From the IMG/VR virus record IMGVR_UViG_2713896773_000026: a stretch of DNA of 24,192 bases, one strand, 5' to 3'. Position numbers and translations under genes: made by a program. Below are positions 3,972 to 23,934 of this stretch, piece after piece; the first letter of the stretch is position 1, and every line of letters begins with the position of its first letter. The notes beneath the pieces are model-generated. The model saw only the letters and a program-made list of their open reading frames with translations. It had not been told where the DNA came from and did not search any database. The DNA is from a virus. Its lineage: Duplodnaviria > Heunggongvirae > Uroviricota > Caudoviricetes.

Positions 3972-4198
3972 TGGCTGATGCAATGGATCTCGTACAGCAG
4001 CGCGTTGAAGAAGAACGCCAGCGCCATATCCGTGCAGCCCGTGCCAAATCACCGGGCGTGTCACGCGTACTTTGCATTGAATGTGAAGCGCCAATTCCGC
4101 CAGCACGACGCCGCGCCATTCCGGGAGTGCAGCTTTGCATTACCTGTCAGGAAATCGCAGAACTGAAAGGCAAACATTACAACGGAGGTGCTGTATGA
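3971..4198 (+). CDS. TraR/DksA-family C4 zinc-finger protein
   Basis: CxxC-X17-CxxC (CIECEAPIPPARRRAIPGVQLCITC); 75 aa; typical of P2-like early regions. Confidence 0.8.
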   Translation: MADAMDLVQQRVEEERQRHIRAARAKSPGVSRVLCIECEAPIPPARRRAIPGVQLCITCQEIAELKGKHYNGGAV

Positions 4199-5052
4199 GC
4201 ACCATCCTGAAATGGGCGGGAAATAAAACCGCCATTATGCCAGAACTGAAAAAATACCTTCCTGCTGGCCCGCGACTGGTTGAACCTTTCGCGGGTTCCT
4301 GTGCTGTGATGATGGAAACGGATTATCCCAGCTATCTGGTTGCGGATATTAATCCTGATTTAATCAACCTCTATAAAAAGGTTGCCGCTGATTGTGAATC
4401 GTTTATATCTCGCGCCAGAGTTTTATTTGAGATCGCAAACAGGGAGGTGGCTTATTACAACATAAGGCAGGAGTTTAACTGCTCAACTGAAATTACTGAT
4501 TTCATGAAAGCGGTATATTTCCTGTATCTCAATCGTCACGGTTACCGTGGTTTATGTCGCTATAACAAGAGCGGGCATTTCAACATTCCCTACGGTAATT
4601 ATAAAAATCCGTATTTCCCTGAAAAAGAACTTCGCACATTTGCAGAAAAAGCCCAGCGAGCAACGTTTATCTGCGCCAGCTTTGATGAAACGCTGGCGAT
4701 GTTGAAGGCGGGAGATGTGGTGTATTGCGATCCGCCATATGACGGTACGTTTTCCGGCTATCACACTGATGGTTTCACTGAAGATGACCAGTATCACCTG
4801 GCATCCGTTCTTGAACATCGGTCATCAGAAGGACATCCGGTCATTGTTTCTAACAGTGACACATCCCTGATCCGTTCGCTGTATCGCAATTTTACTCACC
4901 ACTATATCAAGGTAAAACGCAGCATCGGTGTGGCAGCTGGCGAGGGTAAATCAGCAACAGAAATCATTGCTGTTTCCGGGCCGCGCTGCTGGATGGGATT
5001 TGATTATTCGCGTGGCGTGGATAGTTCTGCCGTGTACGGAGTACGTGCATGA
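4195..5052 (+). CDS. dam: DNA adenine methyltransferase (Dam-like, orphan MTase)
   Basis: N-terminal AdoMet motif LKWAGNK...EPFAGSCAV and catalytic DPPY motif ([10 protein letters not shown]); ATGA overlap with the upstream stop. Confidence 0.9.
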
Positions 5053-7463
5053 GTCATGCCGATATGAACAACTGCTGCGGCTTTAACGAGGCTGCCGCAG
5101 CATTCTCATGGAACAGCCCGAAAAAGGCCATTAACCCTTATCTGGACCCGGCGGAAGTTGCGCCGGTTTCTACGCTTTCAAACCTGATCACTCTGTACGC
5201 TGCCGATAACGAGCAGGAACAGTTGCGCCGCGAGGCACTGAGTGATCAGGTCTGGGAGCGTTATTTCTTTAATGAATCACGTGATCCTGTCCAGCGCGAA
5301 ATGGAGCAGGATAAGCTCATTAGCCGGGCAAAGCTGGCGCATGAGCAGCAGCGTTTTAATTCAGACATGGTCATTCTGGCGGACGTCAACGCCCAGCCTT
5401 CCCATATCAGCAAGCCGCTGATGCAACGTATTGAATACTTCAGCAGCCTGGGCAGGCCAAAGGCTTATTCCCGCTATTTACGTGAGACGATTAAGCCATG
5501 TCTGGAACGACTGGAGCATGTACGCGACAGTCAGCTATCTGCATCTTTTCGCTTTATGGCAAGCCATGAAGGGCTGGACGGCCTGCTGATCCTGCCTGAA
5601 ATGAGTCAGGATCAGGTGAAACGCCTGTCCACCCTGGTAGCTGCGCATATGAGTATGTGCCTTGATGCAGCTTGTGGTGATTTGTATGCCACCGATGACG
5701 TTAAGCCAGAAGAAATCCGCAAGACATGGGAAAAGGTGGCAGCGGAAACCCTGCGTCTGGATGTCATCCCACCTGCGTTTGAGCAACTCCGTCGGAAAAG
5801 AAACCGCCGTAAACCCGTGCCCTATGAACTCATTCCGGGTTCGCTGGCGCGTATGTTGTGCGCCGACTGGTGGTATCGGAAATTATGGAAGATGCGTTGC
5901 GAATGGCGGGAAGAGCAGTTGCGCGCAGTTTGCCTGGTCAGCAAAAAAGCATCTCCTTATGTCAGCTATGAAGCCGTGATGCATAAACGTGAGCAGCGCC
6001 GTAAGTCGCTGGAGTTTTTCCGTTCTCATGAACTGGTGAACGAAGACGGCGACACGCTGGACATGGAGGATGTGGTAAACGCCAGCAGCAGCAACCCTGC
6101 GCATCGCCGCAATGAGATGATGGCCTGTGTTAAAGGTCTGGAGCTTATCGCGGAAATGCGCGGTGACTGCGCCGTTTTCTACACTATCACCTGTCCGTCG
6201 CGTTTCCATTCCACGCTAAATAACGGCAGACCAAACCCGACCTGGACAAACGCGACGGTAAGACAAAGCAGCGATTATCTGGTCGGCATGTTTGCTGCAT
6301 TTCGTAAGGCGATGCACAAAGCCGGGTTGCGCTGGTATGGCGTGCGGGTGGCTGAGCCGCATCATGATGGCACAGTTCACTGGCACCTGTTGTGTTTCAT
6401 GCGCAAAAAAGACCGCCGTGCCATCACTGCATTACTGCGTAAGTTTGCCATCCGTGAAGACCGCGAGGAGCTGGGCAATAACACTGGGCCGCGCTTTAAG
6501 TCTGAGTTGATTAACCCGCGCAAAGGAACGCCGACAAGCTACATCGCGAAATATATCAGTAAGAACATTGACGGTCGTGGTCTGGCTGGCGAGATCAGCA
6601 AGGAAACGGGTAAATCTCTGCGTGATAACGCTGAATACGTGAATGCCTGGGCGTCTCTGCATCGTGTTCAGCAATTCCGCTTCTTTGGTATTCCGGGGCG
6701 TCAGGCTTACCGTGAACTTCGCTTGCTGGCTGGTCAGGCGGCAAGGCAACAGGGTGACAAAAAAGCAGGTGCGCCGGTACTGGATAACCCGCGTCTTGAT
6801 GCCATTCTGGCTGCTGCTGATGCTGGTTGTTTTGCCACCTACATCATGAAGCAGGGCGGCGTACTGGTTCCCCGTAAATATCACCTCATCAGAACCGCTT
6901 ATGAAATTAACGAAGAGCCGACCGCCTATGGCGATCACGGCATTCGTATTTATGGCATCTGGTCACCCATTGCAGAGGGCAAGATCTGCACTCATGCAGT
7001 GAAGTGGAAAATGGTTCGTAAAGCCGTTGACGTTCAGGAGGCGGCAGCCGACCAGGGCGCTTGCGCCCCTTGGACTCGTGGCAATAACTGTCCCCTTGCT
7101 GAAAATTTGTACCAACAAGGGAAAGACAAATCAGCTGATGGGGATACCAGAACGGATATCACCCGTATGGATGACAAGGAGTTGCACGATTACCTGTACA
7201 GTATGAACAAAAAAGAACGCCGGGAACTGGCTGCAAGGTTACGCCTGGTGAAACCGAAACGGCGTAGAGACTACAAACAGCGAATTACAGACCATCAACG
7301 ACAGCAGCTCGTCTATGAACTGAAGTCCAGAGGATTTGATGGCAGCGAGAAAGAGGTCGATTTACTCCTTCGCGGCGGCAGCATTCCATCAGGAGCAGGC
7401 CTGCGTATTTTCTATCGGAACCAGCGTTTGCAGGAAGATGATAAGTGGCGGAACCTGTATTAA
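5049..7463 (+). CDS. repA: Replication initiation endonuclease (P2 gpA / 186 RepA family, rolling-circle HUH)
   Basis: 804 aa; HUH motif [13 protein letters not shown] and tyrosine motif [10 protein letters not shown]; ATGA overlap with dam. Confidence 0.9.
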
Positions 7464-7555
7464 TTACGCGGATTAACAATTCGTGCTCTTAATAATACCA
7501 GGCATATCAGGCTGATGAACGTAAAAAAACGTTTTACATCAGTAAGATTATTATA

Positions 7556-7575
7556 TACTGTAAATATAAACAGTG
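7556..7575. promoter_or_regulatory. LexA (SOS) box TACTGTAAATATAAACAGTG overlapping a candidate -10 (TATACT) upstream of the tum-like gene
   Basis: CTGT-N8-ACAG with an AT-rich centre matches the LexA consensus taCTGTatatatatACAGta. Confidence 0.6.
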
Positions 7576-7616
7576 GTTATGTATACAGTATTGCTTGTGG
7601 TGTCATAGGAGGAAAG

Positions 7617-7805
7617 ATGCAGGACTATTTTTTGGAGTCTTTGAAGCTCCAACGCATTGATTTTTTTCTTAAGCTTGTAGCGGCTGGTGAGTGTAGTGAT
7701 GAAGAGAAGGGGCTGGCCCTGCAGTGGGTTTCTGAACTGACAGATGAACTCATGGCAAAAATCAGAAGCCACGAATACAACCGCTCAATGGATGTCATCA
7801 GCTGA
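7617..7805 (+). CDS. Small SOS-controlled protein (62 aa), possible Tum-like antirepressor module
   Basis: AGGAGG RBS 4 nt upstream of the ATG at 7617; immediately downstream of the LexA box; position equivalent to 186 tum. Confidence 0.5.
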   Translation: MQDYFLESLKLQRIDFFLKLVAAGECSDEEKGLALQWVSELTDELMAKIRSHEYNRSMDVIS

Positions 7806-7815
7806 GGGGACTTTT

Positions 7816-8049
7816 ATGCGCATTGAAATAATGATCGATAAAGAGCAGAAGATTAGCCAGTCTACCCTGGACGCCCTTGAATCAGAGCTTTACCGCAATC
7901 TGCGCCCCCTGTATCCCAAAACGGTAATTCGTATCCGTAAAGGTAGCTCTAACGGTGTGGAACTGACCGGACTGCAACTGGACGAAGAAAGGAAACAAGT
8001 GATGAAAATTATGCAGAAGGTGTGGGAAGACGACAGCTGGCTGCATTAA
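7816..8049 (+). CDS. DinI-family protein (77 aa)
   Basis: MRIEIMIDKEQKIS...VWEDDSWLH resembles E. coli DinI (MRIEVTIAK...TWESADDWF); GAGGGGA RBS. Confidence 0.75.
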   Translation: MRIEIMIDKEQKISQSTLDALESELYRNLRPLYPKTVIRIRKGSSNGVELTGLQLDEERKQVMKIMQKVWEDDSWLH

Positions 8050-8433
8050 GAAACGTTGCTGGCGTCTGAACTTGTTTCTGGCGTCAGCAAGGTTGAACAA
8101 CGAGCTATGCGAGGCGTTAGCCATCTGATCAAAAGACATCAAATATCATATTGTATATCGTGGTCAAACGCTGGAAACAATCATTCCCGATCAGAGGGGC
8201 TTCTTTCAATGTCCAAAAGAGTGAGATAGAGGATACAGGATGGGAAGAGCTTTTGATTAATTATCGTCCAAGTTTTTCAAAAGCTTCTTATCTGGCGGTC
8301 GATACATGATTTACTGTTGGATATGGTATTTAAAATTAATCTTTACACTGTGGTATATGCAGAATAGGATATTATCAATACAATCAAACTGTTTTCATAC
8401 GGTTATTAATATTGCAATGTTATAGGTAATGTC

Positions 8434-9552
8434 ATGTATCTTTTCAAGTATTACCGTCCGGACTTCTTCTTCGAGAAAGCTATTCGTTATAATGAATTAT
8501 ATTTTTCCGCTCCTGCGCAATTGAATGATCCCAATGATCTCAATATAGATTATCGCTTCGATAATAAATTGAAATTATGGGATATTTTATTGCGTTCTCC
8601 TTGCGATAAATCCTATAAAAATTTGAGTCACATATTGGATTTGAGTGATTTGAAAATACATAAGGGATTGAATCGTATTTTTAGAGGAAAAAAAATAAAA
8701 AGTAGCATTGAGTCATTAGATAGCCTGTTTGACTCACACGTTGATGAGATACGTAAGATCATAGATGATGGTTTACTACCTATCAATGTGATTAATTCTG
8801 CTATTTATGGAAATATTCCTGAACCACGCCAATATTTGGTTTCACTTTGCGAGAACAGTATCAAAGAAAGGTTGTATAGGAAGATAGTTCCTGCAGTATT
8901 CAGTGTGTCATTTTCAGCTAATGCGTTAGATCGTATGATGTGGGCGCATTATGCTGCTGGCTTTAGTGGTTGTGTTGTGATTTATGAAACGCAGGATTTT
9001 AATATTGATGGTATACCCTATACTGGAATGAAGCTAAGAGAAAATTTATTTTCATCAGATAAATTTAATTTTCCAGTTAAGCCAATAAAATATAGTAATC
9101 AGGCTAAAGAGGTTTCACTTCTAGACCCAAGCGCAAATGTTGCAGAGTTATTTTTAACTAAAAATAGATTTTGGAGATATGAAGCTGAATATCGAATGTT
9201 TATTCCGGAGGCAAATGCAGGAATAGGGAGTGAGCGGCATGTTCAAAGACGCGTAAATCGAAATATTGGACATATTTTTCATCATGATGCTAATGTTGTT
9301 AAAGGGATCATTTTTGGTCCTAGAATGTGTGAAATGAAAAAAGAAAGCATATGGAATTGTATCAAGTCAAATATGGAGAATTCAAATTCAACAATATGTT
9401 ATTTTTTTGACTCTGAGTTATTAGCATCAGGAAAGATTACTATTTCAAAAGGGCAACGAGCGGAAAAAATGAAAAATTTCACTTTGTTCAGGAACAAGTT
9501 AAGTCAGACGGAAATGGCTAAAGTTTTGAAGGAAATTGGCATTACGAACTAA
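8434..9552 (+). CDS. AT-rich cargo gene: 372-aa protein with a DUF2971-like N-terminal motif; candidate stand-alone anti-phage or accessory protein
   Basis: Long ORF, markedly AT-rich versus the prophage backbone; N-terminus LFKYYRPDFFFEKAIRYNELYFSAPAQLNDPND resembles the DUF2971 signature as remembered; own terminator downstream. Confidence 0.6.
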   Translation: MYLFKYYRPDFFFEKAIRYNELYFSAPAQLNDPNDLNIDYRFDNKLKLWDILLRSPCDKSYKNLSHILDLSDLKIHKGLNRIFRGKKIKSSIESLDSLFDSHVDEIRKIIDDGLLPINVINSAIYGNIPEPRQYLVSLCENSIKERLYRKIVPAVFSVSFSANALDRMMWAHYAAGFSGCVVIYETQDFNIDGIPYTGMKLRENLFSSDKFNFPVKPIKYSNQAKEVSLLDPSANVAELFLTKNRFWRYEAEYRMFIPEANAGIGSERHVQRRVNRNIGHIFHHDANVVKGIIFGPRMCEMKKESIWNCIKSNMENSNSTICYFFDSELLASGKITISKGQRAEKMKNFTLFRNKLSQTEMAKVLKEIGITN

Positions 9553-9618
9553 CCTAACAACAGTGCATGCCTATGCTGCCTGAATTTGCATGACCGTTTG
9601 AGGATCGTTTTTGCTAAG

Positions 9619-9642
9619 GCCCGCCAGAACTGGCGGGCTTTT
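9619..9642 (+). terminator. Rho-independent terminator after the DUF2971-like gene
   Basis: GC stem GCCCGCC/GGCGGGC with a 6-nt loop, followed by TTTT. Confidence 0.6.
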
Positions 9643-9687
9643 GCGTGGATCAGGCACCTGCATGAAAACCACTACACAAAGCGGGCA

Positions 9688-9706
9688 GGCGTGGCGGGGA
9701 TACGAG
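9688..9706. other. cos: cos-like sequence (GGCGTGGCGGGGATACGAG) in a GC-rich patch
   Basis: First 13 nt match the remembered 186 cohesive end GGCGTGGCGGGGA; the location between the accessory region and the portal side fits the P2/186 prophage map. Confidence 0.35.
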
Positions 9707-9719
9707 CGCGCGCAGCGGG

Positions 9720-9748
9720 TGGAAACTCAGATTTGAATGTTGTATAAA
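9720..9748 (+). promoter_or_regulatory. Candidate retron operon promoter (-35 TGGAAA, 17 bp, TG-adjacent -10 TATAAA)
   Basis: Hexamers about 30 bp upstream of the effector start; weak -35. Confidence 0.25.
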
Positions 9749-9777
9749 AGATGGGATCATTCTGAGGAAAAGTGGAT

Positions 9778-10683
9778 ATGAAAAAGAAAACTATTCCGGA
9801 GTTGCAGAAGCAAAATCTGGCAAATTTAATTAAAAGTCGGCTTTTTCAACAGAAAAATAAAAATAAAGTTACTGTTTTCCTTTGCGGGGGCGATTTGAAT
9901 GATCCGTTTTTTTGTAGAAATAAAGTTAAAAGAGTGTTGGAAACACATCCCAAAATAGAAATATTCTATCCTGAGGAGTTGTTTGATGAGCTTTTGTATG
10001 GACAAGGTCAGCATAGTCTTTTAAGTTTGGAGAATATTTTAGCTGATTCAGTCGATGTTATTATTATTATTCCTGAAAGCCCAGGGTCTTTCGCTGAATT
10101 GGGCGCATTTTCAAATAATGAAAAACTGTGCAAAAAAATGATATGTCTTCAGGATGACAAATTCAAACTTAAAAAAAGCTTTCTTAATTATGGGCCTATA
10201 AAACTGCTTCGGCGTGCTAATAGCGGTGCAGTATTGCGAGGAGATTTGTCGACTCTTGAAAGCTTGAGTACAGGTAAAGCTTTTTATAATAGAATTATAA
10301 AAAGTATTAATGACATCAAAAAAAATAACCCAGTTAATCACTCAATAGATAATATTCTTCACGCTCGGCGTTTTATACTGCCATGTATATATTTGATGGA
10401 TGGTATAGATAATATACTTCTATATGAGCTATTACATTTGGTGACTAAGAAAGATGCTATTCTTTGTGAAATTATCGTTAAGTCTGTTATTTCAAGCTTG
10501 ATTAAAGAGTCAATAATTAGGCGTTCAGTTCAAGGATACCATATTACAGAAATTGGTATGCAATACGTTCTTGAGCATTTTGATCGAAAGGCTTTGGACA
10601 ATCTACGACTGGATATGATGAACTTCGAAAATCGTGGTAAAACAATACTCCACTATGATAGGATGCGTTTTGCGCACCCTTAG
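9778..10683 (+). CDS. Retron effector, nucleoside 2-deoxyribosyltransferase-like (NDT) N-terminal domain with a C-terminal putative DNA-binding domain
   Basis: VTVFLCGGDLNDP and IIIIPESPGSFAELGAF motifs typical of the NDT fold; GAGGAAA RBS; 3' end overlaps the retron a1 repeat; AT-rich. Confidence 0.7.
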   Translation: MKKKTIPELQKQNLANLIKSRLFQQKNKNKVTVFLCGGDLNDPFFCRNKVKRVLETHPKIEIFYPEELFDELLYGQGQHSLLSLENILADSVDVIIIIPESPGSFAELGAFSNNEKLCKKMICLQDDKFKLKKSFLNYGPIKLLRRANSGAVLRGDLSTLESLSTGKAFYNRIIKSINDIKKNNPVNHSIDNILHARRFILPCIYLMDGIDNILLYELLHLVTKKDAILCEIIVKSVISSLIKESIIRRSVQGYHITEIGMQYVLEHFDRKALDNLRLDMMNFENRGKTILHYDRMRFAHP

Positions 10684-10831
10684 CGAGTGGCTTCTCCGGA
10701 AGTTCACTGGACAGTGTTTCGCTGTCCTACATACAATCTGAAGTTTTACCAGTTCCCTCATTGAAAGGAGAACATCTCCCGATGTTCTCCTTTCACTTCG
10801 GAATCTGATTTTTATGACGTAAGGGTGCGCT
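10671..10831 (+). ncRNA. msr-msd: Retron msr-msd non-coding RNA (msDNA template), flanked by a1/a2 inverted repeats
   Basis: a1 TGCGCACCCTTA (10671..10682) and a2 TAAGGGTGCGC (10820..10830) form an 11-bp inverted repeat; msr hairpin GGACAG-tgtttcg-CTGTCC (10709..10727); msd hairpin AAAGGAGAACATC-tccc-GATGTTCTCCTTT (10764..10793); ends 2 nt before the RT start. Confidence 0.8.
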
Positions 10832-10832
10832 C

Positions 10833-11807
10833 ATGACTTCCGCAACACCATCTCAGGTTTTTCGCTTACGCAATCTTGGATTGCCTGTTATGTCCTCTTT
10901 AGAGGATATGTCTAGAGAAATGCGTTTATCAGTAGACATACTCCGGTTGTACATTTATCGTGCTGACAAATACTATAAGGTTTATTCGTTGCCAAAAAGA
11001 GATGGCAAGAGATCCCGCATCATTTCACAGCCATCACGTGAGCTGAAGGCATTGCAAGCTTGGGTGTTAAGAAACATCCTTGATAAGTTACATTCATCCC
11101 CATTTTCCAAAGGCTTTGAAAAAGGGCAATCAATATTAAATAATGCCAGCCCACATGTAGGAGCTAACTATGTATTAAATATTGATTTAGAAGATTGTTT
11201 TAATACTATTCTGATAGAGAAAATCTATACTGTTTTTCATTCTCTGGGGTATAACTCTACTATTTCTAATGCTTTAGCAAGATTGTGTTCATTTAATGGT
11301 TCGCTACCTCAAGGTGCACCATCTTCTCCAAAGATTGCGAATCTTGTTTTAACTAAATTAGATTATAGAATACATGGATATGCAGGTAGTAAGGGGATCG
11401 TATTTACTCGATATGCCGATGATTTGACTTTATCTGCTCAATCTTTAAAAAAAATACTTAAAGCTAAGTCATTTGTATGCTCTATAATACCAAGTGAATC
11501 TTTGAAGGTTAATTATAATAAAGTTGCGATTCATGGCCCCAAAGCAAGGAAGGAGGTTACTGGGCTCGTTTTATCTATTGATAATGTTGGAGTTGGCAGA
11601 ATACGTTATCGCGAAATTAGAAGTAAGATCCATTATCTGGCAGTAAAAAGAAATTCTGATTTCGAACATGTTAAAGGACTTATTGCGTTTGTTAAAAGTG
11701 TAGACAAGAAAAACTATAGAAAATTGATGACTTTCTCAAATAAAATGTCTGAAGCATATGGGGTTGATCTAAGTGTTCTTTTTCCTAAAAACAAAAAGGC
11801 CATTTAA
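10833..11807 (+). CDS. ret: Retron-type reverse transcriptase
   Basis: 324 aa; RT motifs NIDLEDCF, LPQGAPSSP, YTRYADDLTLS (YADD at 11412..11423) and the retron-specific VTG motif (RKEVTGLV). Confidence 0.9.
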   Translation: MTSATPSQVFRLRNLGLPVMSSLEDMSREMRLSVDILRLYIYRADKYYKVYSLPKRDGKRSRIISQPSRELKALQAWVLRNILDKLHSSPFSKGFEKGQSILNNASPHVGANYVLNIDLEDCFNTILIEKIYTVFHSLGYNSTISNALARLCSFNGSLPQGAPSSPKIANLVLTKLDYRIHGYAGSKGIVFTRYADDLTLSAQSLKKILKAKSFVCSIIPSESLKVNYNKVAIHGPKARKEVTGLVLSIDNVGVGRIRYREIRSKIHYLAVKRNSDFEHVKGLIAFVKSVDKKNYRKLMTFSNKMSEAYGVDLSVLFPKNKKAI

Positions 11808-11817
11808 TGGCCTTTTT
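11793..11817. terminator. Bidirectional hairpin terminator between the convergent RT and portal genes
   Basis: Palindrome AAAAAGGCCAT-tta-ATGGCCTTTTT with A/T runs on both sides; overlaps the RT stop. Confidence 0.55.
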
Positions 11818-11822
11818 GTTTA

Positions 11823-12854
11823 TTAGGTAATTGAATAACTCACGAAATTAATAACTTCTTCATTTATCCATTCGTTCAGCTCTTCTAGTCTTTTTTGTAA
11901 AGGGATGAGTTCATTCCTCACAAAAACATTAGCAGCTTTCTCTACATCCCCAAATCCTCCAACATTATTAGGCATAATCCCCATCATTTGCGGTGGCACA
12001 CGATGCGCCGCCATCATGTCATCCCGGCTCACGTTCTTGATGTTCAGAAACTCATCCTTCGCCGCGACCTCTGACAACGGGATAATCTGAAGCCCGTCCT
12101 TTTTGCCGTTAGGCGAGTACATAAACAGGTTGCGGAAGTTACCCGGTCCTTTGGCGCTTTTCATCGCGTTGCGGAGGTTGTTCACGTCCTCCTGGTTCTG
12201 CGCGGCATCGGTCATGTACATGATGAAGCCAGCATGACTGCCGTTTATGTAATACTTTCGACGGAACAGCGTGGCGGACTCATTGAGCAGGGCGGACGGA
12301 ATAGCAGAAAGATAGCCGGGCAGGCCATAGATCTCCTGATTTATGTCCGGTTCCATCAGATGGAAAATGCTGCCTTTCGTGAACTGATACGGTTGCGTGG
12401 TCATGCCGTATTGCACAAACCAGTAGGTATCTAGGTCTAATCCACGTCGGGTGTATTTTGCCAGCGCAGGCTCAAGAGCGATAACTTCACCGAATCGGTT
12501 CGTGCGTTTCTCCAGGTAGGCGTTACCAAATACCAGATAGTCCTGCACAAAACGCGAAAAAGCCTGCTGGCTGAGCAGCGGATGAGGGATATAGGTACTG
12601 GTCAGAATGTTGCACTTTACTGCAATCGGGGAACTGTGATGCACGGCGGCGCGGAAGGTGCGCGCCAGTCCGTCAAAGCTGACGGGCGGCTCATACCAAC
12701 GGTCCATCTGTACGCATTCCACATAATCCAGCAGTTCTCGGCGGTCCAGAACAGGAACGGGATCGCCGAAGCTGAATGCTTCGGCTGTAGTTTGACTTTT
12801 AAGCTGGATCTGTTTCGTCGCCGCAGCGCGGTTCTTCTTACTCTTTCCCATCAA
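11823..12854 (-). CDS. Q: Portal (capsid portal protein, P2 gpQ family)
   Basis: 343 aa; position and orientation next to the terminase gene as in P2 (Q-P leftward operon). Confidence 0.85.
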   Translation of the reverse strand: MMGKSKKNRAAATKQIQLKSQTTAEAFSFGDPVPVLDRRELLDYVECVQMDRWYEPPVSFDGLARTFRAAVHHSSPIAVKCNILTSTYIPHPLLSQQAFSRFVQDYLVFGNAYLEKRTNRFGEVIALEPALAKYTRRGLDLDTYWFVQYGMTTQPYQFTKGSIFHLMEPDINQEIYGLPGYLSAIPSALLNESATLFRRKYYINGSHAGFIMYMTDAAQNQEDVNNLRNAMKSAKGPGNFRNLFMYSPNGKKDGLQIIPLSEVAAKDEFLNIKNVSRDDMMAAHRVPPQMMGIMPNNVGGFGDVEKAANVFVRNELIPLQKRLEELNEWINEEVINFVSYSIT

Positions 12855-14554
12855 AAAATCTCCACAATATTGCTGGTATTGGCGGATTCGCCCTGCAGCG
12901 GTTCGTTAAACAGTGCGTGCATCGTTGCCCAGGCCAGATCGGCGTGGCTGGCTTCTTCGCTGCGGCTGGCTTCATAGGTCGGGCGGTTGCCACTGGCGGT
13001 GGTGGCGCGACGGATTGCCATAAAGGACTGCGCTATGTCGGTGTGTCCGGCGTCAAACTCCAGACGGCGGTGGCTGATAATGTCGTAGGCCTTGAGTACC
13101 AGGGCGTTTTTAACGTTGGGGTTGTAGACAAACTCCCGGACGGCAGGAAAAAACGCTTTCACGTTCTCGTAAACCCCGTGACCAACGCCGGTTGAGTCGA
13201 TACCGATATAGGTCACGTTGTACTGTTCGGTCAGTTTTTTGATGGCGTCAGCCTGGGCGCGGAAGTCCATTCCGCGCCACTGGTGACGCTCAAGAATGCG
13301 GAACTTACCGCCCGGCACGGCTGGCGGCGCCACCACCACGCATCCGGCGCTGTCGCCGTTCTGCGTACCTTTCGCCGGGTCATATCCGATCCACACTTCG
13401 CGCCAGCCAAACGGGCGCAGGGCCAGTGCATGAAAGTCGGTCCAGACTTCCCAACTGTCCACCATGCACGCCTGCAGCTCGCTGAGTGGGAACACAGACG
13501 CGAGATCGTCCACGAACTCACACATCAGCAGGTTCTGGTATTCGTCCGGGCTGTACTCCATGCGCAACTGGTCGAGGTCGAACAGGTTACAGCCGCCGCG
13601 CACCGCATCTTCCACAGTGACTATCTGGCGGTACTGCCCGTCTGCGCACAGCAGGCCGGGGGCCAGATTGCTGTGGGACAGGTCGATGTCCACCTTATCG
13701 GCTTTGTTGCGCCCTCGGTTGAACAGCGCACCGGACCAGAACGGATAAGCACTGTGTGTCAGGCTGGATGGCGTGGAAAAATAGGTTTGTCGCCATTTTT
13801 TGTGAATAGCCATACCGGAAGCCACTTTGCGCAGCTCCTGGAATTTCGGTATCCAGAAATATTCATCCAGATACAGGTTGCCGTGGTAACTCTGGGCCGT
13901 GCGGGCATTGGTGCCGAGGAAGTACAGCGTGGCCCCGTTAGGAAGCACCATCGGATCGCCTTTCAGCTCCACCTCCACTTCTTTGGCGAAGTCGATGATG
14001 TACTGCTTAAAGACGTGGGCCTGAGCCTTGCTGGCGGAAAGGAAAATCTGGTTACGCCCGGTTAGCAGGGCGTCAATCAGGGCTTCACGGGCAAAATAGA
14101 AGGTCGCGCCGATCTGGCGTGACTTCAGCAGGTTGCGGATGCGGTTGGTTTTTCCGGCTTCCCACCAGTGGCGCTGGTAGTTGAACATGGAGGAATGGAA
14201 GATTTCTTCCAGCTTCTCAATCTGTTCATCGGTGAAAACGTTCTTTTCCGGCTGACGGCGCGGGCCTTTGTTGCGGTTGGCGACGTTAGGGTTTAAGTCG
14301 GCTTCGTTGCCGCCATTGTTAAACTTGCCGATCCGCGCATGGCGCTCCGACTGGCGCGCCAGCAGGTCAATCTCTTTGAAATCTTTCCCTTCTTTGTGCT
14401 CCTTCATAATGAGCTGGCAGTAGCGTGCGGCGGTGGTGAGCTGCATCTGATCCAGCGGCCCATAGTCACCCCACTTGTCGCGTTTTTTCCAGCTGTGAAC
14501 GGTTGCAACTTTCTCGCCCAGCATTTCAGCAATGCGGGCTATCTGCCCAGACAC
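12851..14554 (-). CDS. P: Terminase large (ATPase) subunit, P2 gpP family, 5'-truncated at a deletion junction and probably non-functional
   Basis: 567 aa; nuclease-domain-like segments; the upstream in-frame sequence is antisense to the sheath gene, so the native N-terminus and promoter are missing; the GTG start is an ORF-caller artefact. Confidence 0.8.
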
Positions 14555-14562
14555 AGCTCGGC
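14540..14562. other. Deletion junction joining the terminase 5' region to the middle of the tail sheath gene
   Basis: Terminase homology (minus strand) ends and sheath homology (plus strand, from [11 protein letters not shown]) begins within about 20 bp; scaffold, capsid, small terminase, lysis, baseplate and fibre genes are absent. Confidence 0.7.
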
Positions 14563-15363
14563 GTTAAACCGCGCATTCTCGGCGTGCCAGGCCACGACAC
14601 CAAGGCGGTAGCTACTGAGTTGCTGAGCGTGGCGCAAAGCCTGCGTGGATTTGCTTACCTGTCAGCGTATGGCTGCAAGACGGTGCAGGAGGCGATCACT
14701 TACCGTGAAAACTTCAGCCAGCGCGAAGGAATGCTGATCTGGCCCGACTTTACTGGCTGGGACATGGTGCTGAATGCCGAAGCAACGGCATATGCCACCG
14801 CCCGTGCGCTTGGTCTGCGTGCCAAAATTGATGAGCAGACTGGGTGGCACAAAAGCCTGTCCAACGTGGGTGTGAATGGTGTCACCGGAATTTCTGCAGA
14901 TGTGTTCTGGGATCTGCAGGACCCGGCAACCGATGCAGGTCTGCTGAACCAGAACGACGTTACCACGCTTGTGCGTAAAGACGGTTTCCGCTTCTGGGGT
15001 TCCCGCTGCCTGAGTGATGACCCGCTCTTTGCCTTCGAAAACTACACCCGCACGGCGCAGGTGCTGACGGACACAATGGCAGAAGCGCACATGTGGGCAG
15101 TGGACAAACCGCTGAACCCGTCGCTGGCGCGCGACATTATCGAGGGCATCCGCGCCAAAATGCGCAGCCTGGTCAGTCAGGGGTATCTCATTGGTGGTGA
15201 TTGCTGGCTGGACGAGTCGGTGAACGACAAAGACACTCTGAAAGCCGGAAAACTCACCATCGACTACGACTACACGCCAGTGCCGCCACTTGAAAACCTG
15301 ATGTTGCGTCAGCGCATCACCGATCAGTACCTGGTGAATTTCGCCAGCCAGGTCAGCGCGTAA
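14543..15363 (+). pseudogene. FI: Tail sheath protein (P2 gpFI family), C-terminal two-thirds only
   Basis: Clear similarity to remembered P2 FI from about residue 130 ([11 protein letters not shown]...WPDF...[15 protein letters not shown]...[20 protein letters not shown]); no native start or RBS. Confidence 0.8.
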
Positions 15364-15372
15364 GGGGACAAC

Positions 15373-15888
15373 ATGGCTTTACCACGCAAATTAAAACACC
15401 TGAACCTGTTTAACGACGGGAACAACTGGCAGGGGATCGTTGAGTCGCTGACGCTGCCGAAATTTACCCGCAAATATGAGAAGTATCGCGGCGGCGGAAT
15501 GCCGGGTGCGGTGGATGTGGATCTGGGGCTTGATGACAGTGCGCTGGACACAGAATTTTCCATTGGTGGTACTGAATTGCTGCTGTTTAAACAGATGGGT
15601 AAAGCCACGGTGGATGGCATCCAGCTGCGCTTTACCGGCTCTATTCAGCGTGACGATACCGGGGAAGTGCAGGCCGTGGAGCTTGTCGTGCGTGGACGTC
15701 ACAAAGAAGTGGATTCCGGCGAGTGGAAGACGGGCGAAAGCAACACCACCAAAGTGACCAGTACCAACAGCTACGCGAAGCTGACCATCAATGGTGAGGT
15801 GCTCTATGAAGTGGACCTTATCAACATGGTGGAAATTGTGGACGGTGTGGACCTGATGGAAGCGCACCGCAACGCCCTCGGCCTCTGA
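15373..15888 (+). CDS. FII: Major tail tube protein (P2 gpFII family)
   Basis: 171 aa; N-terminus MALPRKLKHLNLFNDGNNWQG as in P2 FII; GGGGA RBS. Confidence 0.9.
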   Translation: MALPRKLKHLNLFNDGNNWQGIVESLTLPKFTRKYEKYRGGGMPGAVDVDLGLDDSALDTEFSIGGTELLLFKQMGKATVDGIQLRFTGSIQRDDTGEVQAVELVVRGRHKEVDSGEWKTGESNTTKVTSTNSYAKLTINGEVLYEVDLINMVEIVDGVDLMEAHRNALGL

Positions 15889-15899
15889 TGTATCTGAAC

Positions 15900-15917
15900 G
15901 GCGCGGAATGCCGCGCC
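15900..15917 (+). other. GC-rich intercistronic stem-loop (GGCGCGG-aatg-CCGCGCC) between FII and E
   Basis: Perfect 7-bp GC stem; no T-run, so more likely an attenuator or RNA-stability element than a full terminator. Confidence 0.35.
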
Positions 15918-15942
15918 AGAACCTAATTTACAGGACAACAAA

Positions 15943-16245
15943 ATGAGCGATAAACAGACTGAAAAGAGCATTCAACTGGATACCCCCATCATGCGCGGTA
16001 AAACAGAAATTACCGAAATTGTGCTGCGTAAACCGCAGTCTGGTGCGCTGCGCGGCACACGCCTGCAGGCCATTATGGATATGGATGTGAACGCGATGAT
16101 GACCGTGATCCCCCGCATCTCCAGTCCGGCACTGACTGCACAGGAAATTGCAGAGATGGACCCGGCAGATCTCACTGCCATGTCGGTTGAGGTTGTCACT
16201 TTTTTGTTGAAGAAGTCGGTGCTTGCCGGTTTACCGACAGCCTGA
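15943..16245 (+). CDS. E: Tail assembly chaperone gpE
   Basis: Small acidic protein between the tube and tape-measure genes; contains a TTTTTTG slippery heptamer at 16200..16206. Confidence 0.8.
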   Translation: MSDKQTEKSIQLDTPIMRGKTEITEIVLRKPQSGALRGTRLQAIMDMDVNAMMTVIPRISSPALTAQEIAEMDPADLTAMSVEVVTFLLKKSVLAGLPTA

Positions 16246-16379
16246 CGGTTGACGATCTGGTGGCAGATATCGCCACCATTTTTCACTGGCCGCCATCCGT
16301 TACTGACGTTATGCCGCTGATCGAAGTGCTGGAATGGCGGTATAAAGCGATTCAGAGAAGCGGGGCCAACGATGAGTGA
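15943..16379 (+). CDS. E+E': Tail assembly chaperone gpE+E' (programmed -1 frameshift at T TTT TTG, 16200..16206)
   Basis: The -1 frame is open from 16206 to a TGA at 16377..16379, overlapping the T start at 16372; this is the conserved arrangement in P2-like phages. Confidence 0.6.
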
Positions 16380-19300
16380 TAACAACCTGCGTCTGCAGGT
16401 CATTCTTAATGCGGTTGACAAGCTCACCCGCCCATTTCGATCTGCGCAGGCCAGTTCAAGAGAACTGGCTGCTGCTGTCAAAAAATCCCGCGATGCAATA
16501 AAGCAGCTTGATCAGGCCGGGAGCAGTCTGGACAGCTTCCGAAAGCTGCAGGCAGAAAATCAGAAATTAGGCGACAGGCTGAACTATGCCCGCCAGCGTG
16601 CAAATTTGCTCAGTCAGGAACTGGGAGCGATGGGGCCGCCTTCGCAACGTCAGGTTGTTGCTCTGGGCCGTCAACGGCTGGCTGTTCAGCGCCTGGAAGA
16701 ACGCCAGAAAAAGCTGCAGCAGCAGACGGCGCTTGTGCGTGCTGAACTGTACCGGGCGGGAATTTCTGCGAAAGACGATGCGGGAGCAACTGCCCGTTTA
16801 GCCCGTGAAACATCACGTTATAACCAGGAACTTTCGAAACAGGAGGCGCGGCTGAAGCGACTGGGGGAAGCTCAGCGCAGGATGAATGCAGCGCGTGCCA
16901 GTTATGCCCGTTCGCTGGAGGTGCGTGATCGTATTGCAGGTGCCGGAGCCACCACCACGGCTGCAGGGCTGGCAATGGGCGCACCAGTGATGGCGGCAGT
17001 AAAAAGCTATACCAGCATGGAAGATGCCATGAAAGGTGTGGCAAAGCAGGTCAATGGCCTGCGTGACGATAATGGCAACCGCACTGCACGTTTTTATGAA
17101 ATGCAGGATGCCATCAAGGCTGCCAGCGAACAGTTGCCGATGGAAAACGGTGCGGTGGATTTCGCTGCACTGGTTGAAGGTGGTGCGCGCATGAACGTCG
17201 CAAACCCTGACGACAGCTGGGAAGACCAGAAACGTGACCTGCTGGCCTTCGCCAGTACGGCAGCAAAGGCGGCAACAGCCTTTGAGCTGCCAGCGGATGA
17301 ACTGTCAGAAAGTCTGGGGAAAATCGCCCAGCTCTACAAAATACCTACCCGCAATATTGAACAGCTCGGCGATGCGCTGAACTATCTGGATGATAACGCC
17401 ATGTCGAAAGGGGCAGACATCATTGATGTGATGCAACGTCTGGGCGGTGTGGCTGACCGTCTGGATTATCGTAAAGCGGCGGCGCTGGGTTCCACCTTCC
17501 TGACACTGGGCGCTGCGCCAGAGGTTGCAGCCAGTGCAGCAAACGCGATGGTGCGTGAATTGTCCATTGCCACCATGCAAAGCAAGAGTTTCTTTGAAGG
17601 GATGAATCTGCTGAAACTCAATCCTGAAGTGATTGAAAAGCAGATGACGAAGGATGCGATGGGAACCATCCAGCGCGTGCTGGAGAAGGTGAACGCACTG
17701 CCGCAGGACAAGCGTCTGTCTGCCATGACCATGTTGTTTGGTAAAGAGTTTGGCGATGACGCGGCGAAACTGGCAAACAACCTGCCGGAACTGCAGCGCC
17801 AGTTAAAGCTGACAGCGGGCAATGATGCGCTCGGTTCCATGCAGAAAGAATCCGACATCAACAAGGACTCACTTTCTGCTCAGTGGTTGCTGGTCAAAAC
17901 CGGAGCGCAGAACACCTTCAGCAGCCTGGGTGAAACGCTGCGCCAGCCGCTGATGGATATTCTGTACACGGTGAAAAGCGTCACGGGGGCGTTGCGTCGC
18001 TGGGTGGAAGCTAACCCGGAACTGACGGGCACACTGATGAAAGCAGCGGCTGTTGTGGCTGCGGTTACCGTGGGCCTCGGCACCTTAGCGGTGGTGTTAG
18101 CTGCAGTGCTGGGGCCGCTGGCAGTGATCCGTCTGGGGTTCTCTGTGCTGGGTATCAAAACGTTACCTTCCGTTACGGCAGCAGTAACCCGAACCAGCAG
18201 CGCGTTGTCCTGGCTGGCTGGCGCACCACTGGCACTGCTGCGACGCGGGCTTACTTCATCGGGCAACGCCGCAGGTTTACTTACTGCGCCGTTGTCGTCT
18301 TTGCGCCGCACGGCATCACTGACGGGAAATGTCCTGAAAACTGTAGCAGGTGCGCCGGTTGCACTTTTGCGGTCTGGATTATCCGGTTTACGTGCTGTTG
18401 CTGTGATGTTTATGAATCCTCTGGCGGTACTGCGCGGTGGACTGGCCGCCGCAGGCACGGTGCTGCGAGTACTGGCATCTGGTCCACTGGCGATGCTGCG
18501 CGTTGCCCTGTATGCCGTATCTGGTCTGTTAGGTGCTCTGCTCAGTCCGATAGGTCTTGTGGTTACTGCACTGGCGGGCGTGGCGCTGGTTGTCTGGAAA
18601 TACTGGCAACCCATCACCGCATTTCTTGGTGGCGTGGTGGAAGGATTCAAAGCGGCGGCAGGTCCCGTCAGTGCAGCATTCGAACCGCTTAAGCCCGTGT
18701 TCCAGTGGATTGGCGACAAAGTACAGGCGCTGTGGGGCTGGTTTACTGATCTGCTGACGCCCGTTAAGTCGACCTCTGCCGAACTGCAGAGTGCAGCGGC
18801 AATGGGGCGGCGATTCGGGGAGGCACTGGCGGAAGGGCTGAATATGGTCATGCATCCGCTGGACTCCCTGAAATCCGGCGTTTCCTGGTTGCTGGAGAAA
18901 CTCGGCGTTGTCAGTAAAGAGGCCGCAAAGGCGAAACTACCGGAAAGTGTGACGCGTCAGCAACCTGCGACGGTGAATACAGACGGTAAAGTGATGATGC
19001 CATCGGGTGGTTTTCCGTCATGGGGATATGGCTTTGCGGGGATGTATGACAGCGGCGGCTATATCCCGCGCGGGCAGTTTGGCATCGTCGGTGAAAACGG
19101 GCCGGAAATTGTTAACGGCCCGGCAAATGTGACCAGCCGGAGAAATACAGCTGCACTGGCTGCCGTTGTTGCCGGAATGATGGGCGTTGCTGCCGCGCCA
19201 GCAGAGCTTCCACCGTTGCACCCTTTGGCACTTCCCGCGAAAGGTGGAGAAGCAATTGTGAGTCGCGCAGCCACTGTGCCGCCCGTTTACAGGATTGAGG

Positions 19301-19449
19301 CACCGACGCAGATCATCATCCAGACGCAGCCAGGACAAAGTGCGCAGGATATTGCGCGGGAGGTGGCCCGCCAGCTTGATGAACGTGAACGCAGGCTGAA
19401 GGCAAAAGCCAGGAGTAACTACAGCGATCAGGGGGGATACGACGCATGA
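16372..19449 (+). CDS. T: Tail tape measure protein (gpT family)
   Basis: 1025 aa; coiled-coil-rich N-terminus, hydrophobic repeat-rich centre; position after E/E'. Confidence 0.85.
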   Translation: MSDNNLRLQVILNAVDKLTRPFRSAQASSRELAAAVKKSRDAIKQLDQAGSSLDSFRKLQAENQKLGDRLNYARQRANLLSQELGAMGPPSQRQVVALGRQRLAVQRLEERQKKLQQQTALVRAELYRAGISAKDDAGATARLARETSRYNQELSKQEARLKRLGEAQRRMNAARASYARSLEVRDRIAGAGATTTAAGLAMGAPVMAAVKSYTSMEDAMKGVAKQVNGLRDDNGNRTARFYEMQDAIKAASEQLPMENGAVDFAALVEGGARMNVANPDDSWEDQKRDLLAFASTAAKAATAFELPADELSESLGKIAQLYKIPTRNIEQLGDALNYLDDNAMSKGADIIDVMQRLGGVADRLDYRKAAALGSTFLTLGAAPEVAASAANAMVRELSIATMQSKSFFEGMNLLKLNPEVIEKQMTKDAMGTIQRVLEKVNALPQDKRLSAMTMLFGKEFGDDAAKLANNLPELQRQLKLTAGNDALGSMQKESDINKDSLSAQWLLVKTGAQNTFSSLGETLRQPLMDILYTVKSVTGALRRWVEANPELTGTLMKAAAVVAAVTVGLGTLAVVLAAVLGPLAVIRLGFSVLGIKTLPSVTAAVTRTSSALSWLAGAPLALLRRGLTSSGNAAGLLTAPLSSLRRTASLTGNVLKTVAGAPVALLRSGLSGLRAVAVMFMNPLAVLRGGLAAAGTVLRVLASGPLAMLRVALYAVSGLLGALLSPIGLVVTALAGVALVVWKYWQPITAFLGGVVEGFKAAAGPVSAAFEPLKPVFQWIGDKVQALWGWFTDLLTPVKSTSAELQSAAAMGRRFGEALAEGLNMVMHPLDSLKSGVSWLLEKLGVVSKEAAKAKLPESVTRQQPATVNTDGKVMMPSGGFPSWGYGFAGMYDSGGYIPRGQFGIVGENGPEIVNGPANVTSRRNTAALAAVVAGMMGVAAAPAELPPLHPLALPAKGGEAIVSRAATVPPVYRIEAPTQIIIQTQPGQSAQDIAREVARQLDERERRLKAKARSNYSDQGGYDA

Positions 19450-19931
19450 TGATGGTGCTGGGATTGTACGTGTTTATGCTGCGCACCGTGCCGTATCAGG
19501 AGCTGCAGTATCAACGCAGCTGGCGACATGCGGCAAACAGCCGGGTAAACCGACGTCCGTCCACGCAGTTTCTGGGACCGGACAACGACATGCTGACGCT
19601 TTCCGGTGTTCTTATGCCGGAGATAACAGGTGGCAGGCTGTCGTTGCTGGCACTGGAGCAGATGGCAGAACAGGGGAAAGCATGGCCCCTGATTGAAGGC
19701 AGCGGCACGATTTATGGCATGTATGTGATTGAGGGACTGAATCAGACTAAAACGGAGTTTTTCCGCGACGGTATGCCGCGCCGGATTGAGTTCACCCTGT
19801 CGCTCAAACGGGTGGATGAATCCCTGTCCGGTATGTTCGGTGATCTCAGTACGCAACTGAATAATCTGCAGGACACGGCAACATCTGCCTTAAGTGATAT
19901 CAGTAAAACGGTGGGAGGGCTGCTGTCGTGA
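19446..19931 (+). CDS. U: Tail protein gpU
   Basis: 161 aa; start overlaps the T stop (ATGATGATG); position between T and D. Confidence 0.8.
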   Translation: MMMVLGLYVFMLRTVPYQELQYQRSWRHAANSRVNRRPSTQFLGPDNDMLTLSGVLMPEITGGRLSLLALEQMAEQGKAWPLIEGSGTIYGMYVIEGLNQTKTEFFRDGMPRRIEFTLSLKRVDESLSGMFGDLSTQLNNLQDTATSALSDISKTVGGLLS

Positions 19932-21028
19932 ATTTCAGCTCTGAACTGCTTAACAAAGGCAACAAAACTCCCGCATTCAGCATCAGTATTGAGGGCAGGG
20001 ATATCACTACTGTGCTGGATAACCGTCTGATGAGTCTGACGCTGACGGACAATCGGGGCTTTGAAGCGGACCAGCTTGATCTGGAGCTGGACGACGCCGA
20101 CGGAAAAATCGTGCTGCCGCGCCGTGGTGCGGTCATCACGCTGGCGCTGGGCTGGAAGGGGCAGCCGCTTTTCCCGAAAGGGGCATTCACGGTGGACGAG
20201 ATTGAACACACCGGCGCACCGGATCGCCTGACTATCCGGGCGCGAAGTGCTGATTTTAGGGAAACGCTGAATACCCGCCGTGAAAAATCGTGGCACAAGA
20301 CCACTGTCGGGGAAGTGGTGAAGGAAATAGCCGCGCGTCATAAGCTGAAGATGGCACTGGGTAAAGACCTGTCGGATAAGCCCGTGGAGCATATAGACCA
20401 GACTAATGAGAGTGACGGCAGTTTTCTGATGCGGCTGGCGCGCCAGTACGGTGCCATCGCGTCGGTGAAAAATGGCAATCTGTTATTCATCCGGCAGGGA
20501 CAGGGCAAAAGCGCCAGCGGTAAACCACTGCCGGTGATCTCAATCACACGTAAGGACGGCGACAGTCACCGCTTTACCCTGGCAGATCGCGGAGCCTACA
20601 CGGGCGTAATTGCCAGTTGGTTGCATACCCGCGAACCCGAGAAGAAAGAAAGCACCACGGTGAAGCGTAAGCGCAGGACTAAGAAGCAGAAGAAAGAGCC
20701 GGAAGCGAAGCAGGGCGATTACCTGGTGGGTACGGATGAAAACGTGCTGGTACTTAATCGCACTTATGCCAACCGGAGCAACGCCGAACGGGCAGCGAAA
20801 ATGCAGTGGGAACGCCTGCAACGCGGCGTTGCATCATTCTCGCTACAACTGGCGGAAGGGCGGGCAGATCTCTACACAGAAATGCCTGTGAAGGTCAGTG
20901 GCTTTAAACAGCCGATAGATGATGCGGAATGGACCATTACGACTCTGACGCATACCGTCAGCCCCGATAACGGTTTTACAACCAGTCTGGAGCTTGAAGT
21001 GAGGATTGATGATTTCGAAATGGAATGA
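19928..21028 (+). CDS. D: Tail protein gpD (late gene D family)
   Basis: 366 aa; GTG start overlapping the U stop with a GGGAGGG RBS; position before ogr. Confidence 0.8.
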   Translation: MNFSSELLNKGNKTPAFSISIEGRDITTVLDNRLMSLTLTDNRGFEADQLDLELDDADGKIVLPRRGAVITLALGWKGQPLFPKGAFTVDEIEHTGAPDRLTIRARSADFRETLNTRREKSWHKTTVGEVVKEIAARHKLKMALGKDLSDKPVEHIDQTNESDGSFLMRLARQYGAIASVKNGNLLFIRQGQGKSASGKPLPVISITRKDGDSHRFTLADRGAYTGVIASWLHTREPEKKESTTVKRKRRTKKQKKEPEAKQGDYLVGTDENVLVLNRTYANRSNAERAAKMQWERLQRGVASFSLQLAEGRADLYTEMPVKVSGFKQPIDDAEWTITTLTHTVSPDNGFTTSLELEVRIDDFEME

Positions 21029-21118
21029 TTATTCGCAATGGAGAACTTTTAAGTTTGCAAAATGGAATAATGCGGTATCATTATTGTGAATTTAGCAAAA
21101 ATGGGGAGAACTCGAAAA

Positions 21119-21337
21119 ATGATGATTTGCCCACTGTGTGGAAGTGCCGCCCATACTCGCAGCAGTTTTCAGGTATCTTCATTGACCAAAGAGCGTTACA
21201 ACCAGTGCCAGAACATTAACTGCAGCCATACTTTTGTTACCCATGAAACTTTTGTTCGTTCGATTGCAACGCCAAAAGAGTCAAATCCGGTTCAGCCGCA
21301 TCCAATGAAATCAGGACAGGTGGCGCTCTCTCTTTGA
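21119..21337 (+). CDS. ogr: Late transcription activator, Ogr/B (Delta) zinc-finger family
   Basis: 72 aa from the ATG at 21119; CPLCGSAAH...CQNINCSH zinc-finger pattern as in P2 Ogr (CPLCQHAAH...CQNVNCS). Confidence 0.85.
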   Translation: MMICPLCGSAAHTRSSFQVSSLTKERYNQCQNINCSHTFVTHETFVRSIATPKESNPVQPHPMKSGQVALSL

Positions 21338-21359
21338 CGCTGCCGCCATTTTGTCGCCA
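21338..21359. repeat. attR: attR core (right copy of the 22-bp direct repeat cgctgccgccattttgtcgcca)
   Basis: 21/22 identical to 19..40; immediately after the ogr stop. Confidence 0.65.
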
Positions 21360-21415
21360 TCGTTAAAAAACAGTGTTTCTAACATCATGATTTTAAACAG
21401 CTTAAATTTCAGGCA

Positions 21416-21460
21416 ACAAAAAACCCATCAACCTTGAACCGAAATGGCGGGGTTGATGGG
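21416..21460 (-). terminator. Candidate rho-independent terminator downstream of ybjL
   Basis: 10-bp stem CCCATCAACC/GGTTGATGGG (17-nt loop) followed on the minus strand by a U-run (plus-strand A6). Confidence 0.4.
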
Positions 21461-21572
21461 CTCCACAAAATGGGGACATCAAAGAAAAGCAGTGGCACTA
21501 ATTAAGACTGATGCCCTGCGGAAAAGTTCTGCGGTTGTGCAAAAAAATTTCATTTTCAGGGCAACTTCAGTT

Positions 21573-23258: not shown

Positions 23259-23527
23259 GGAGGCTAACTTCTTGTTTACTAGTAAGCTGTTGAAAGAAAT
23301 GGTAATTTACGATAATGTTTTTTACCAGAATTCAGGGCGCAGATTCATTCAGCGCACCTAAACGATAGTAAAGCAACAATATATTTTACTAGTGTAATCA
23401 CATTAGGTATCAACGGCTATATGAATTGCGTTGGCCTATATTAGCATGGAATGCGAAGCGGCTTTATCTTACTGAACGCCACACTGGCGAAAAATGTGTT
23501 CGATAGACGCAGTGTCAGGAGGAACGA

Positions 23528-23925: not shown

Positions 23926-23934
23926 GTCAGACGA

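Follow-up and report, generated by a model that had tools for sequence, protein, structure and literature searches.

A 12,279-bp block is missing between the terminase and tail sheath genes of a P2/186-type prophage in Escherichia coli AW1.3

The stretch of DNA analysed here (24,192 bp, referred to as the window; virus record IMGVR_UViG_2713896773_000026) corresponds to positions 89..24280, reversed, of contig LDYI01000162.1 in the draft assembly of Escherichia coli AW1.3 (GCA_001309485.1, WGS LDYI01, BioProject PRJNA277539; 184 contigs), a highly heat-resistant beef isolate of phylogroup A (PMC4563881). It carries a P2/186-type prophage in which what is left of the large terminase gene and what is left of the tail sheath gene meet at a single junction, at 14541/14542. 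The large terminase (gpP) remnant is a 5′-truncated open reading frame (ORF) of 567 amino acids on the minus strand (12851..14554) that opens at a GTG within sheath-derived DNA. The tail sheath (FI/J) remnant, also 5′-truncated, occupies 14542..15363 on the plus strand and retains residues 118-390 of 390. In the intact prophage of E. coli O68:H12 strain 97.3 (reference sequence L001), the corresponding coding sequences lie at 6033..7799 (minus strand, 588 amino acids) and 19652..20824 (plus strand, 390 amino acids).

The terminase breakpoint falls in codon 26, such that the first 26 codons are lost, five junction codons (VSGQI) are gained and the protein then continues ARIAEMLG. The GTG at which the remnant opens arises by chance in sheath-derived antisense DNA, and neither a recognisable ribosome-binding site nor a promoter was found for it. 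According to Pfam, the N-terminal Terminase_5 domain lacks its first 15 positions (it starts at profile position 16 of 58), and the ATPase and nuclease domains are whole. The sheath breakpoint falls in codon 117, the first 117 codons are lost, and the remnant is without Gp18_domIII_N and the first 14 positions of Phage_sheath_1. In the numbering of P2 and 186, with which these two proteins share only 63-73% identity, the first residue left of the terminase corresponds to 27 of P2 P, and the sheath is broken at residue 122 of P2 FI and 119 of 186 J. The two remnants are divergent, their 5′ ends meeting on opposite strands, and both lack a promoter and the native start codon; in this head-to-head arrangement a fusion protein cannot form.

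Aligning the window with L001 by blastn resolved two collinear blocks. Window 7576..14541 matches L001 758..7723 at 99.99% identity, and window 14540..24192 matches L001 20001..29653 at 99.98%. The same arrangement was found against the prophage of E. coli KFu015 (L002, aligned as its reverse complement), where window 1..14541 is 100% identical and 14540..24192 carries two mismatches; both of these (23374 and 24031) fall in host DNA to the right of the prophage, so that the retained prophage DNA shows zero substitutions in 21.4 kb. The blocks overlap by two bases, TA (14540..14541), with terminase-side DNA to the left and sheath-side DNA to the right, and no bases are inserted. On the terminase side the parental context reads GCGGGCTA up to the breakpoint and continues CGCGG; on the sheath side it reads CCCTGTTA and continues TCTGCCC (CCTGTTA followed by TCTGCCC). 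With respect to either reference 12,279 bp are missing, corresponding to L001 7724..20002, and from core to core the prophage measures 21,502 bp compared with 33,781 bp for the intact form. This is a base-exact breakpoint between two near-identical collinear alignments and is not a product of chance.

Searches of larger collections placed the breakpoint at the same bases. By megablast of the junction region, terminase/portal homology among phage records ends at window 14541, and sheath/tube homology among 5,426 complete E. coli genomes begins at 14540; in two of those genomes, 97.3 and KFu015, this chromosomal site is occupied by an intact copy of the prophage. The original prediction, that a P2/186-type prophage had suffered an internal deletion, is borne out by these intact copies. 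It had placed minus-strand terminase up to about 14550 and plus-strand sheath homology from about 14543..14561 (here, terminase-derived sequence to 14541 and sheath-derived sequence from 14540/14542), had put the break near residue 130 of P2 FI (residue 122 was found) and had estimated 10-12 kb as missing, which comes close to the 12,279 bp measured. The microhomology check that it proposed found only the 2-bp TA, and the missing genes are not located elsewhere in the window, since the two collinear blocks account for all of it. Its statement that the deletion fuses terminase to sheath holds for the DNA, which is joined, and not for the genes, which diverge.

The junction itself appears to be confined to one strain. 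Megablast across it found no match in complete E. coli genomes (5,426 searched); related terminase or sheath DNA is present in 1,255 of these, and in none do both pieces lie within ~1.5 kb of each other. It was equally absent from 50,697 phage records, an exact 54-mer spanning it was not found in GTDB representative genomes, and an exact 32-mer was not found in JGI metagenomes. The exact 567-amino-acid product occurs on only two contigs, both from the AW1.3 assembly, whereas 240 blocks of that collection list the CI repressor of this prophage. Two protein accessions exist for the truncated terminase, but they come from this one assembly and do not constitute independent confirmation. The same defective state was thus not seen across several strains or lineages, the junction and the 567-amino-acid product being found only in AW1.3.

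The gene content of the deleted interval was read from L001. Twenty genes and one pseudogene are wholly lost and two genes are truncated. Gone are the head and packaging genes (scaffold, major capsid, small terminase and head completion), gene X, the lysis genes (holin, lysozyme, a LysA-like gene in the LysA position, LysB and LysC), the tail and baseplate genes (R, S, V, W, J, I, H and two tail-fibre assembly genes) and, finally, a serine invertase together with an alternative fibre C-terminus (the pseudogene). This list agrees with the predicted removal of the head, lysis and baseplate block and leaves the prophage of the window without a complete set of morphogenesis and lysis genes. A second cargo hotspot had also been counted among the losses; the slot is indeed deleted, but in the intact relatives it holds only the invertase and an invertible tail-fibre segment.

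Late genes on either side of the junction survive in quantity. To the left, the portal gene (gpQ, 11823..12851, minus strand) is intact. To the right, the tail genes FII to D (15373..21028, plus strand) are all intact, comprising the tube gene FII (15373-15888), E (15943-16245), E′ (16260-16379), the tape measure gene T (16372-19449), U (19446-19931) and D (19928-21028), followed by an intact ogr/B-type zinc-finger late activator gene (21119..21337, plus strand). The P2 and 186 records annotate sites for the Ogr/B activator in three places: in the P-O interval (p12/pV in 186), ahead of V, and ahead of FI (pJ in 186). The corresponding TGT-N12-ACA motif occurs six times in 26 kb of L001, approximately the number expected by chance, and four of the six (7788, 7846, 13754 and 19558) lie exactly in those three short intergenic regions, matching the pP/pO, pV and pF activator sites (p12/pV and pJ in 186). 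All four fall inside the deleted interval, and the prophage DNA that remains in the window has TGT-N12-ACA motifs only within the coding sequences for the tube and the tape measure. No sigma-70-like promoter was detected within 14000-16400, and the junction creates no new one. Since all four Ogr/B-dependent late promoters are gone, the portal gene (severed from its late promoter), the terminase remnant, the sheath remnant and FII-E-E′-T-U-D (which have lost pF) would be transcriptionally orphaned, and Ogr would be left with no target in cis. Approximately 8.6 kb of late genes that are now useless, comprising the portal gene, the terminase remnant and the sheath remnant through D, are still present.

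Because the retained DNA is identical to that of KFu015, the RefSeq annotation of that genome could be transferred directly to the window. The leftmost gene encodes an intact integrase (1..1053, minus strand), and the window starts at its stop codon; the attL site lies ~75-88 bp outside. Next come the intact CI immunity repressor gene (1449..2018, minus strand) and, on the plus strand, an early lytic operon starting with an Apl-like gene of 73 amino acids in the Apl/Cox position (2144-2365) and including CII (2398-2907) and Fil (2915-3211). DUF5347, DUF2732 and TraR/DksA genes are also kept, as are a Dam methylase gene (4195-5052, plus strand, classed by PADLOC as an orphan methylase) and the gene for the replication endonuclease gpA (5049-7463, plus strand), both intact. 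Immunity, integration, replication, Dam and the retron described below had been predicted to be kept; the integrase gene, CI, CII, Dam, gene A and the retron are each base-identical to the intact copy.

Downstream of gpA is a match to the LexA box (CTGTAAATATAAACAG, 7558-7573), the sole match in the window, where 0.28 would be expected by chance. It is followed on the plus strand by a 62-codon ORF (7617-7805) and a DinI-like ORF (7816-8049), which together form a LexA-boxed operon in the position of the 186 p95/tum SOS operon. The prophage of strain 97.3 carries a group II intron (ltrA) 2 bp beyond the LexA box, an insertion that may uncouple its SOS operon.

Two cargo loci flank the likely cohesive-end site. 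A DUF2971 gene (8434..9552, plus strand) sits in the gpA-cos part of the hotspot, in the old/tin position, and its product matches the PADLOC candidate defence family PDC-S31 (E = 1e-23). The likely cos site (GGCGTGGCGGGGATACGAG, 9688..9706, plus strand) was located by alignment with the joined 186 ends: the 186 cos region matches window 9622-9713 at 77%, with the first 13 cohesive-end bases shared. A direct search with presumed 19-mers for the P2 and 186 cos sites gave only a poor match, with four mismatches. Between cos and the portal gene lies an intact retron of type St85/II-A (9778..11807, plus strand), composed of an NDT-type effector gene (PADLOC NDT_II-A, 9778-10683) and a reverse transcriptase gene (PADLOC RT_II-A, 10833-11807) whose stop codon is only 15 bp from that of the portal gene. 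Rfam found no msr/msd RNA; the only non-coding candidates near the retron are a 149-bp gap (10684-10832) and a 71-bp gap (9707-9777). At the right end, a 14-bp attR core (AACAAAAAACCCAT, 21415..21428) forms the 3′ terminus of rybB and recurs at attL in KFu015. The small RNA gene rybB (21415-21493, minus strand; Rfam RF00110, 105 bits) is thus reconstituted at attR.

Synteny and homology in the early, replication, portal/terminase and tail genes (blastn, blastp and the KFu015 annotation), together with the Ogr/B-type zinc-finger activator and the cos site, place the element among the P2/186-type phages. The gene order is that of 186 (Eganvirus), P2 (Peduovirus) and the Peduoviridae in general, running from int-CI and apl-cII-fil to A, the SOS operon, cargo, cos and a leftward portal-terminase pair, then the morphogenesis operons, then tube to D and last ogr/B. 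With 186 it shares CI/CII/Fil-type control and the LexA-boxed operon, and its intact relative L001 shares with P2 and 186 the Ogr/B-type late activator sites at the same intergenic positions. It differs from 186 in attachment site (rybB here, ileY for 186) and from both phages in carrying the retron II-A and DUF2971 cargo and in lacking the 12.3-kb morphogenesis and lysis block. The prophages of KFu015 (NZ_CP147130.1) and 97.3 (NZ_CP061758.1) occupy the same site with the same cargo and are 100% and 99.98-99.99% identical, respectively, over the retained DNA; unlike the window, they keep the 12,279-bp block. The tail-fibre invertible segment (L001 17068-18878) is in opposite orientations in 97.3 and KFu015 (98.7% identity, inverted), and the main tail-fibre gene of KFu015 is annotated as broken; even these intact references therefore differ in likely infectivity.

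Collinear near-identity to an intact relative on both sides of one junction and truncated ORFs at that junction identify a prophage made defective by internal deletion. The history that best accounts for these observations would be one illegitimate-recombination deletion of 12,279 bp, evolutionarily very recent, inside a 33.8-kb P2/186-type (Peduoviridae) prophage that is integrated at the rybB 3′ end in AW1.3, leaving a 21.5-kb defective prophage. We assign a probability of roughly 90% to this single, very recent deletion. The event would represent a fresh singleton specific to this strain and the first step of prophage decay. The ends share only TA, and so the join does not look like the work of site-specific or homologous recombination; end joining, either homology-independent or microhomology-mediated (or slippage after breakage), would be the likely route. 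A deletion mediated by homology or repeats was rejected on the same ground: beyond the two shared bases, the 200-nt neighbourhoods of the breakpoints show no extended direct or inverted similarity (best local scores 10-11), and the junction carries no insertion sequence (IS) element, repeat or foreign DNA.

Some observations nevertheless weigh against this account or limit it. By our own calculation, at least two shared bases are expected by chance in ~16% of random joins, and the junction therefore does not identify a repair pathway. The junction is backed by one sequencing data set. Moreover, a second P2-like prophage elsewhere in AW1.3 could possibly supply the missing genes in trans.

The original prediction went further and described the prophage as a domesticated element that retains its accessory functions. 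Under such a model, selection would have eliminated the genes for killing and for structure but spared immunity and the defence cargo. The lost and kept sets do fit, with lysis and morphogenesis gone and CI, retron II-A, DUF2971/PDC-S31 and Dam kept, and it has been argued that lysogens escaping lytic induction are favoured (PMC6379469), which we counted for adaptive domestication. However, the deletion was seen nowhere else searched although the intact prophage is common, and zero substitutions relative to the intact copy leave no time for selection to have become visible. The ~8.6 kb of late genes is unpurged, and Fil is kept, whose 186 homologue blocks cell division on overexpression, so that induction may still harm the cell. 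The kept set, moreover, is simply whatever falls outside one contiguous interval. A junction that is a singleton in one draft assembly, with no divergence from the intact prophage and no sign of inheritance or selection, does not sustain the term domesticated, and we regard adaptive domestication as improbable.

It is also conceivable that the contig is chimeric and that the real genome holds the intact prophage. The source is a 2015 short-read draft (HiSeq2000, 100-bp pairs, 300-bp inserts, 579x, assembled with ABySS 1.3.4; PMC4563881), the junction occurs in this assembly only, and the assembly oddly holds the prophage on two contigs. The two parental sites, however, share two bases, far less than any de Bruijn k-mer overlap, and the breakpoints are without repeat, IS element or homology. 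With so short an overlap, a de Bruijn assembler could connect the two loci only where reads cross the join, and junction-spanning reads must therefore exist; since both contigs run through the junction unbroken at 579x, the intact allele must be absent or rare. An assembly artefact thus appears very unlikely.

Still less credible is a role for the serine invertase (Cin/Gin type) encoded by the prophage itself, which would have deleted the block by recombining quasi-crossover sites. In the intact phage its gene is found ~490 bp upstream of the right breakpoint, intact relatives possess both the gene and an actively flipping tail-fibre segment, and the 2-bp overlap at the junction recalls the 2-bp core at which such enzymes exchange strands. 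Yet the genuine crossover sites of L001 read CCTTGGTTTGGG, unlike the breakpoints, and 26-mers centred on the breakpoints agree with the annotated Mu-like crossover site of 186 at no more than 5-6 of 26 positions, fewer than the 7.7 that the genome background averages; neither breakpoint resembles the crossover consensus, and this candidate was discarded.

Equally remote is the proposal that the element is a natural P4-like satellite or hitcher, and not a deletion derivative. The element does combine cos, int, a replication gene and an Ogr/Delta-type activator with a lack of capsid genes. Yet on either side of the junction it matches a full-length phage base for base, it carries truncated terminase and sheath genes and a full but useless tail block, and it shares its junction with no satellite lineage searched; an origin of this kind is effectively refuted. 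An R-type tailocin was likewise rejected, the sheath being truncated and the baseplate, fibres, holin and lysozyme deleted.

With no capsid, scaffold, small terminase, holin, endolysin, spanins, baseplate, tail fibre or complete sheath, the element is predicted to be unable to make particles or to lyse its host. CI, Int with an Apl-like excision function, gpA replication, the SOS operon, cos, Dam, DUF2971 and retron II-A are all untouched by the deletion, so that the strain should keep superinfection immunity and the defence cargo, and the element can probably still excise and replicate after induction. Induction may also harm the cell without lysis, through retained early functions such as Fil. 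For AW1.3, a model heat-resistant food isolate, this would mean a prophage that gives neither plaques nor lysis yet confers 186-type immunity and carries retron II-A and a DUF2971 candidate defence gene.

Comparable elements are known. The pool of defective prophages in O157 Sakai (PMC2669165) and the cryptic prophages of K-12 (PMC6379469) have likewise been rendered non-infectious by deletions while keeping regulatory, recombination and accessory genes, and defective Sakai prophages can still excise, replicate and be packaged with help (Asadulghani et al., PMC2669165), a kind of behaviour that is well documented for defective prophages (PMC2669165, PMC6379469). Those elements are mostly lambdoid, older and multiply damaged, whereas the AW1.3 element has one clean lesion and no divergence. 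It thus offers a clean snapshot of the first step of decay, with one lesion and nothing else changed. The position of the cargo is also familiar: the cos-proximal gpA-gpQ hotspot of P2-like phages carries defence cargo including a retron (Rousset et al., 2022; PMC9122126), and the AW1.3 cargo fits this hotspot, which merely lies outside the deleted interval and is in no way unusual.

The AW1.3 assembly contains the deleted prophage twice, on two contigs whose ends coincide with the attachment cores. LDYI01000046.1 (105,881 bp; record position = window + 84,453) ends at window 21428, the last base of the attR core. LDYI01000162.1 (record position = window + 88) begins 88 bp to the left of window 1, where the attL core, positioned as in KFu015, has its outermost base. 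These positions are based on coordinate arithmetic. At the k values used for 100-bp reads, a repeat of 14 bp is not expected to cause branching in an assembly graph, and the contig ends therefore hint at something else. Ends at exactly these bases would be expected from a third, attP-type junction (prophage right arm-core-prophage left arm). We tentatively suggest, as a possibility that falls well short of an even chance, that the AW1.3 culture holds such a junction, either as excised, gpA-replicated circles accumulating without lysis or as a tandem double lysogen. Duplication of the prophage at another chromosomal position would be a poorer fit, since the truncated terminase is present on no more than two contigs. 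If the suggestion is correct, the element would be a 21.5-kb inducible integrative replicon, bearing cos and a retron, that could be mobilised by a P2-like helper, although its length, 64% of the genome, may be an obstacle to packaging in a P2 head.

Biologically the AW1.3 element represents ordinary prophage decay that raises no new question, and it matters mainly for annotation and for the biology of the strain. The truncated terminase is deposited as WP_054623380.1, which RefSeq calls "terminase ATPase subunit family protein" and GenBank and UniRef call "oxidoreductase"; it bears no pseudogene flag. For the sheath remnant, the 286-amino-acid ORF has no entry as a called gene, and the source record does not call it either. 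Public annotation therefore hides the lesion, and with the terminase annotated as ordinary and the sheath remnant unannotated, prophage-calling tools could score the element as largely intact.

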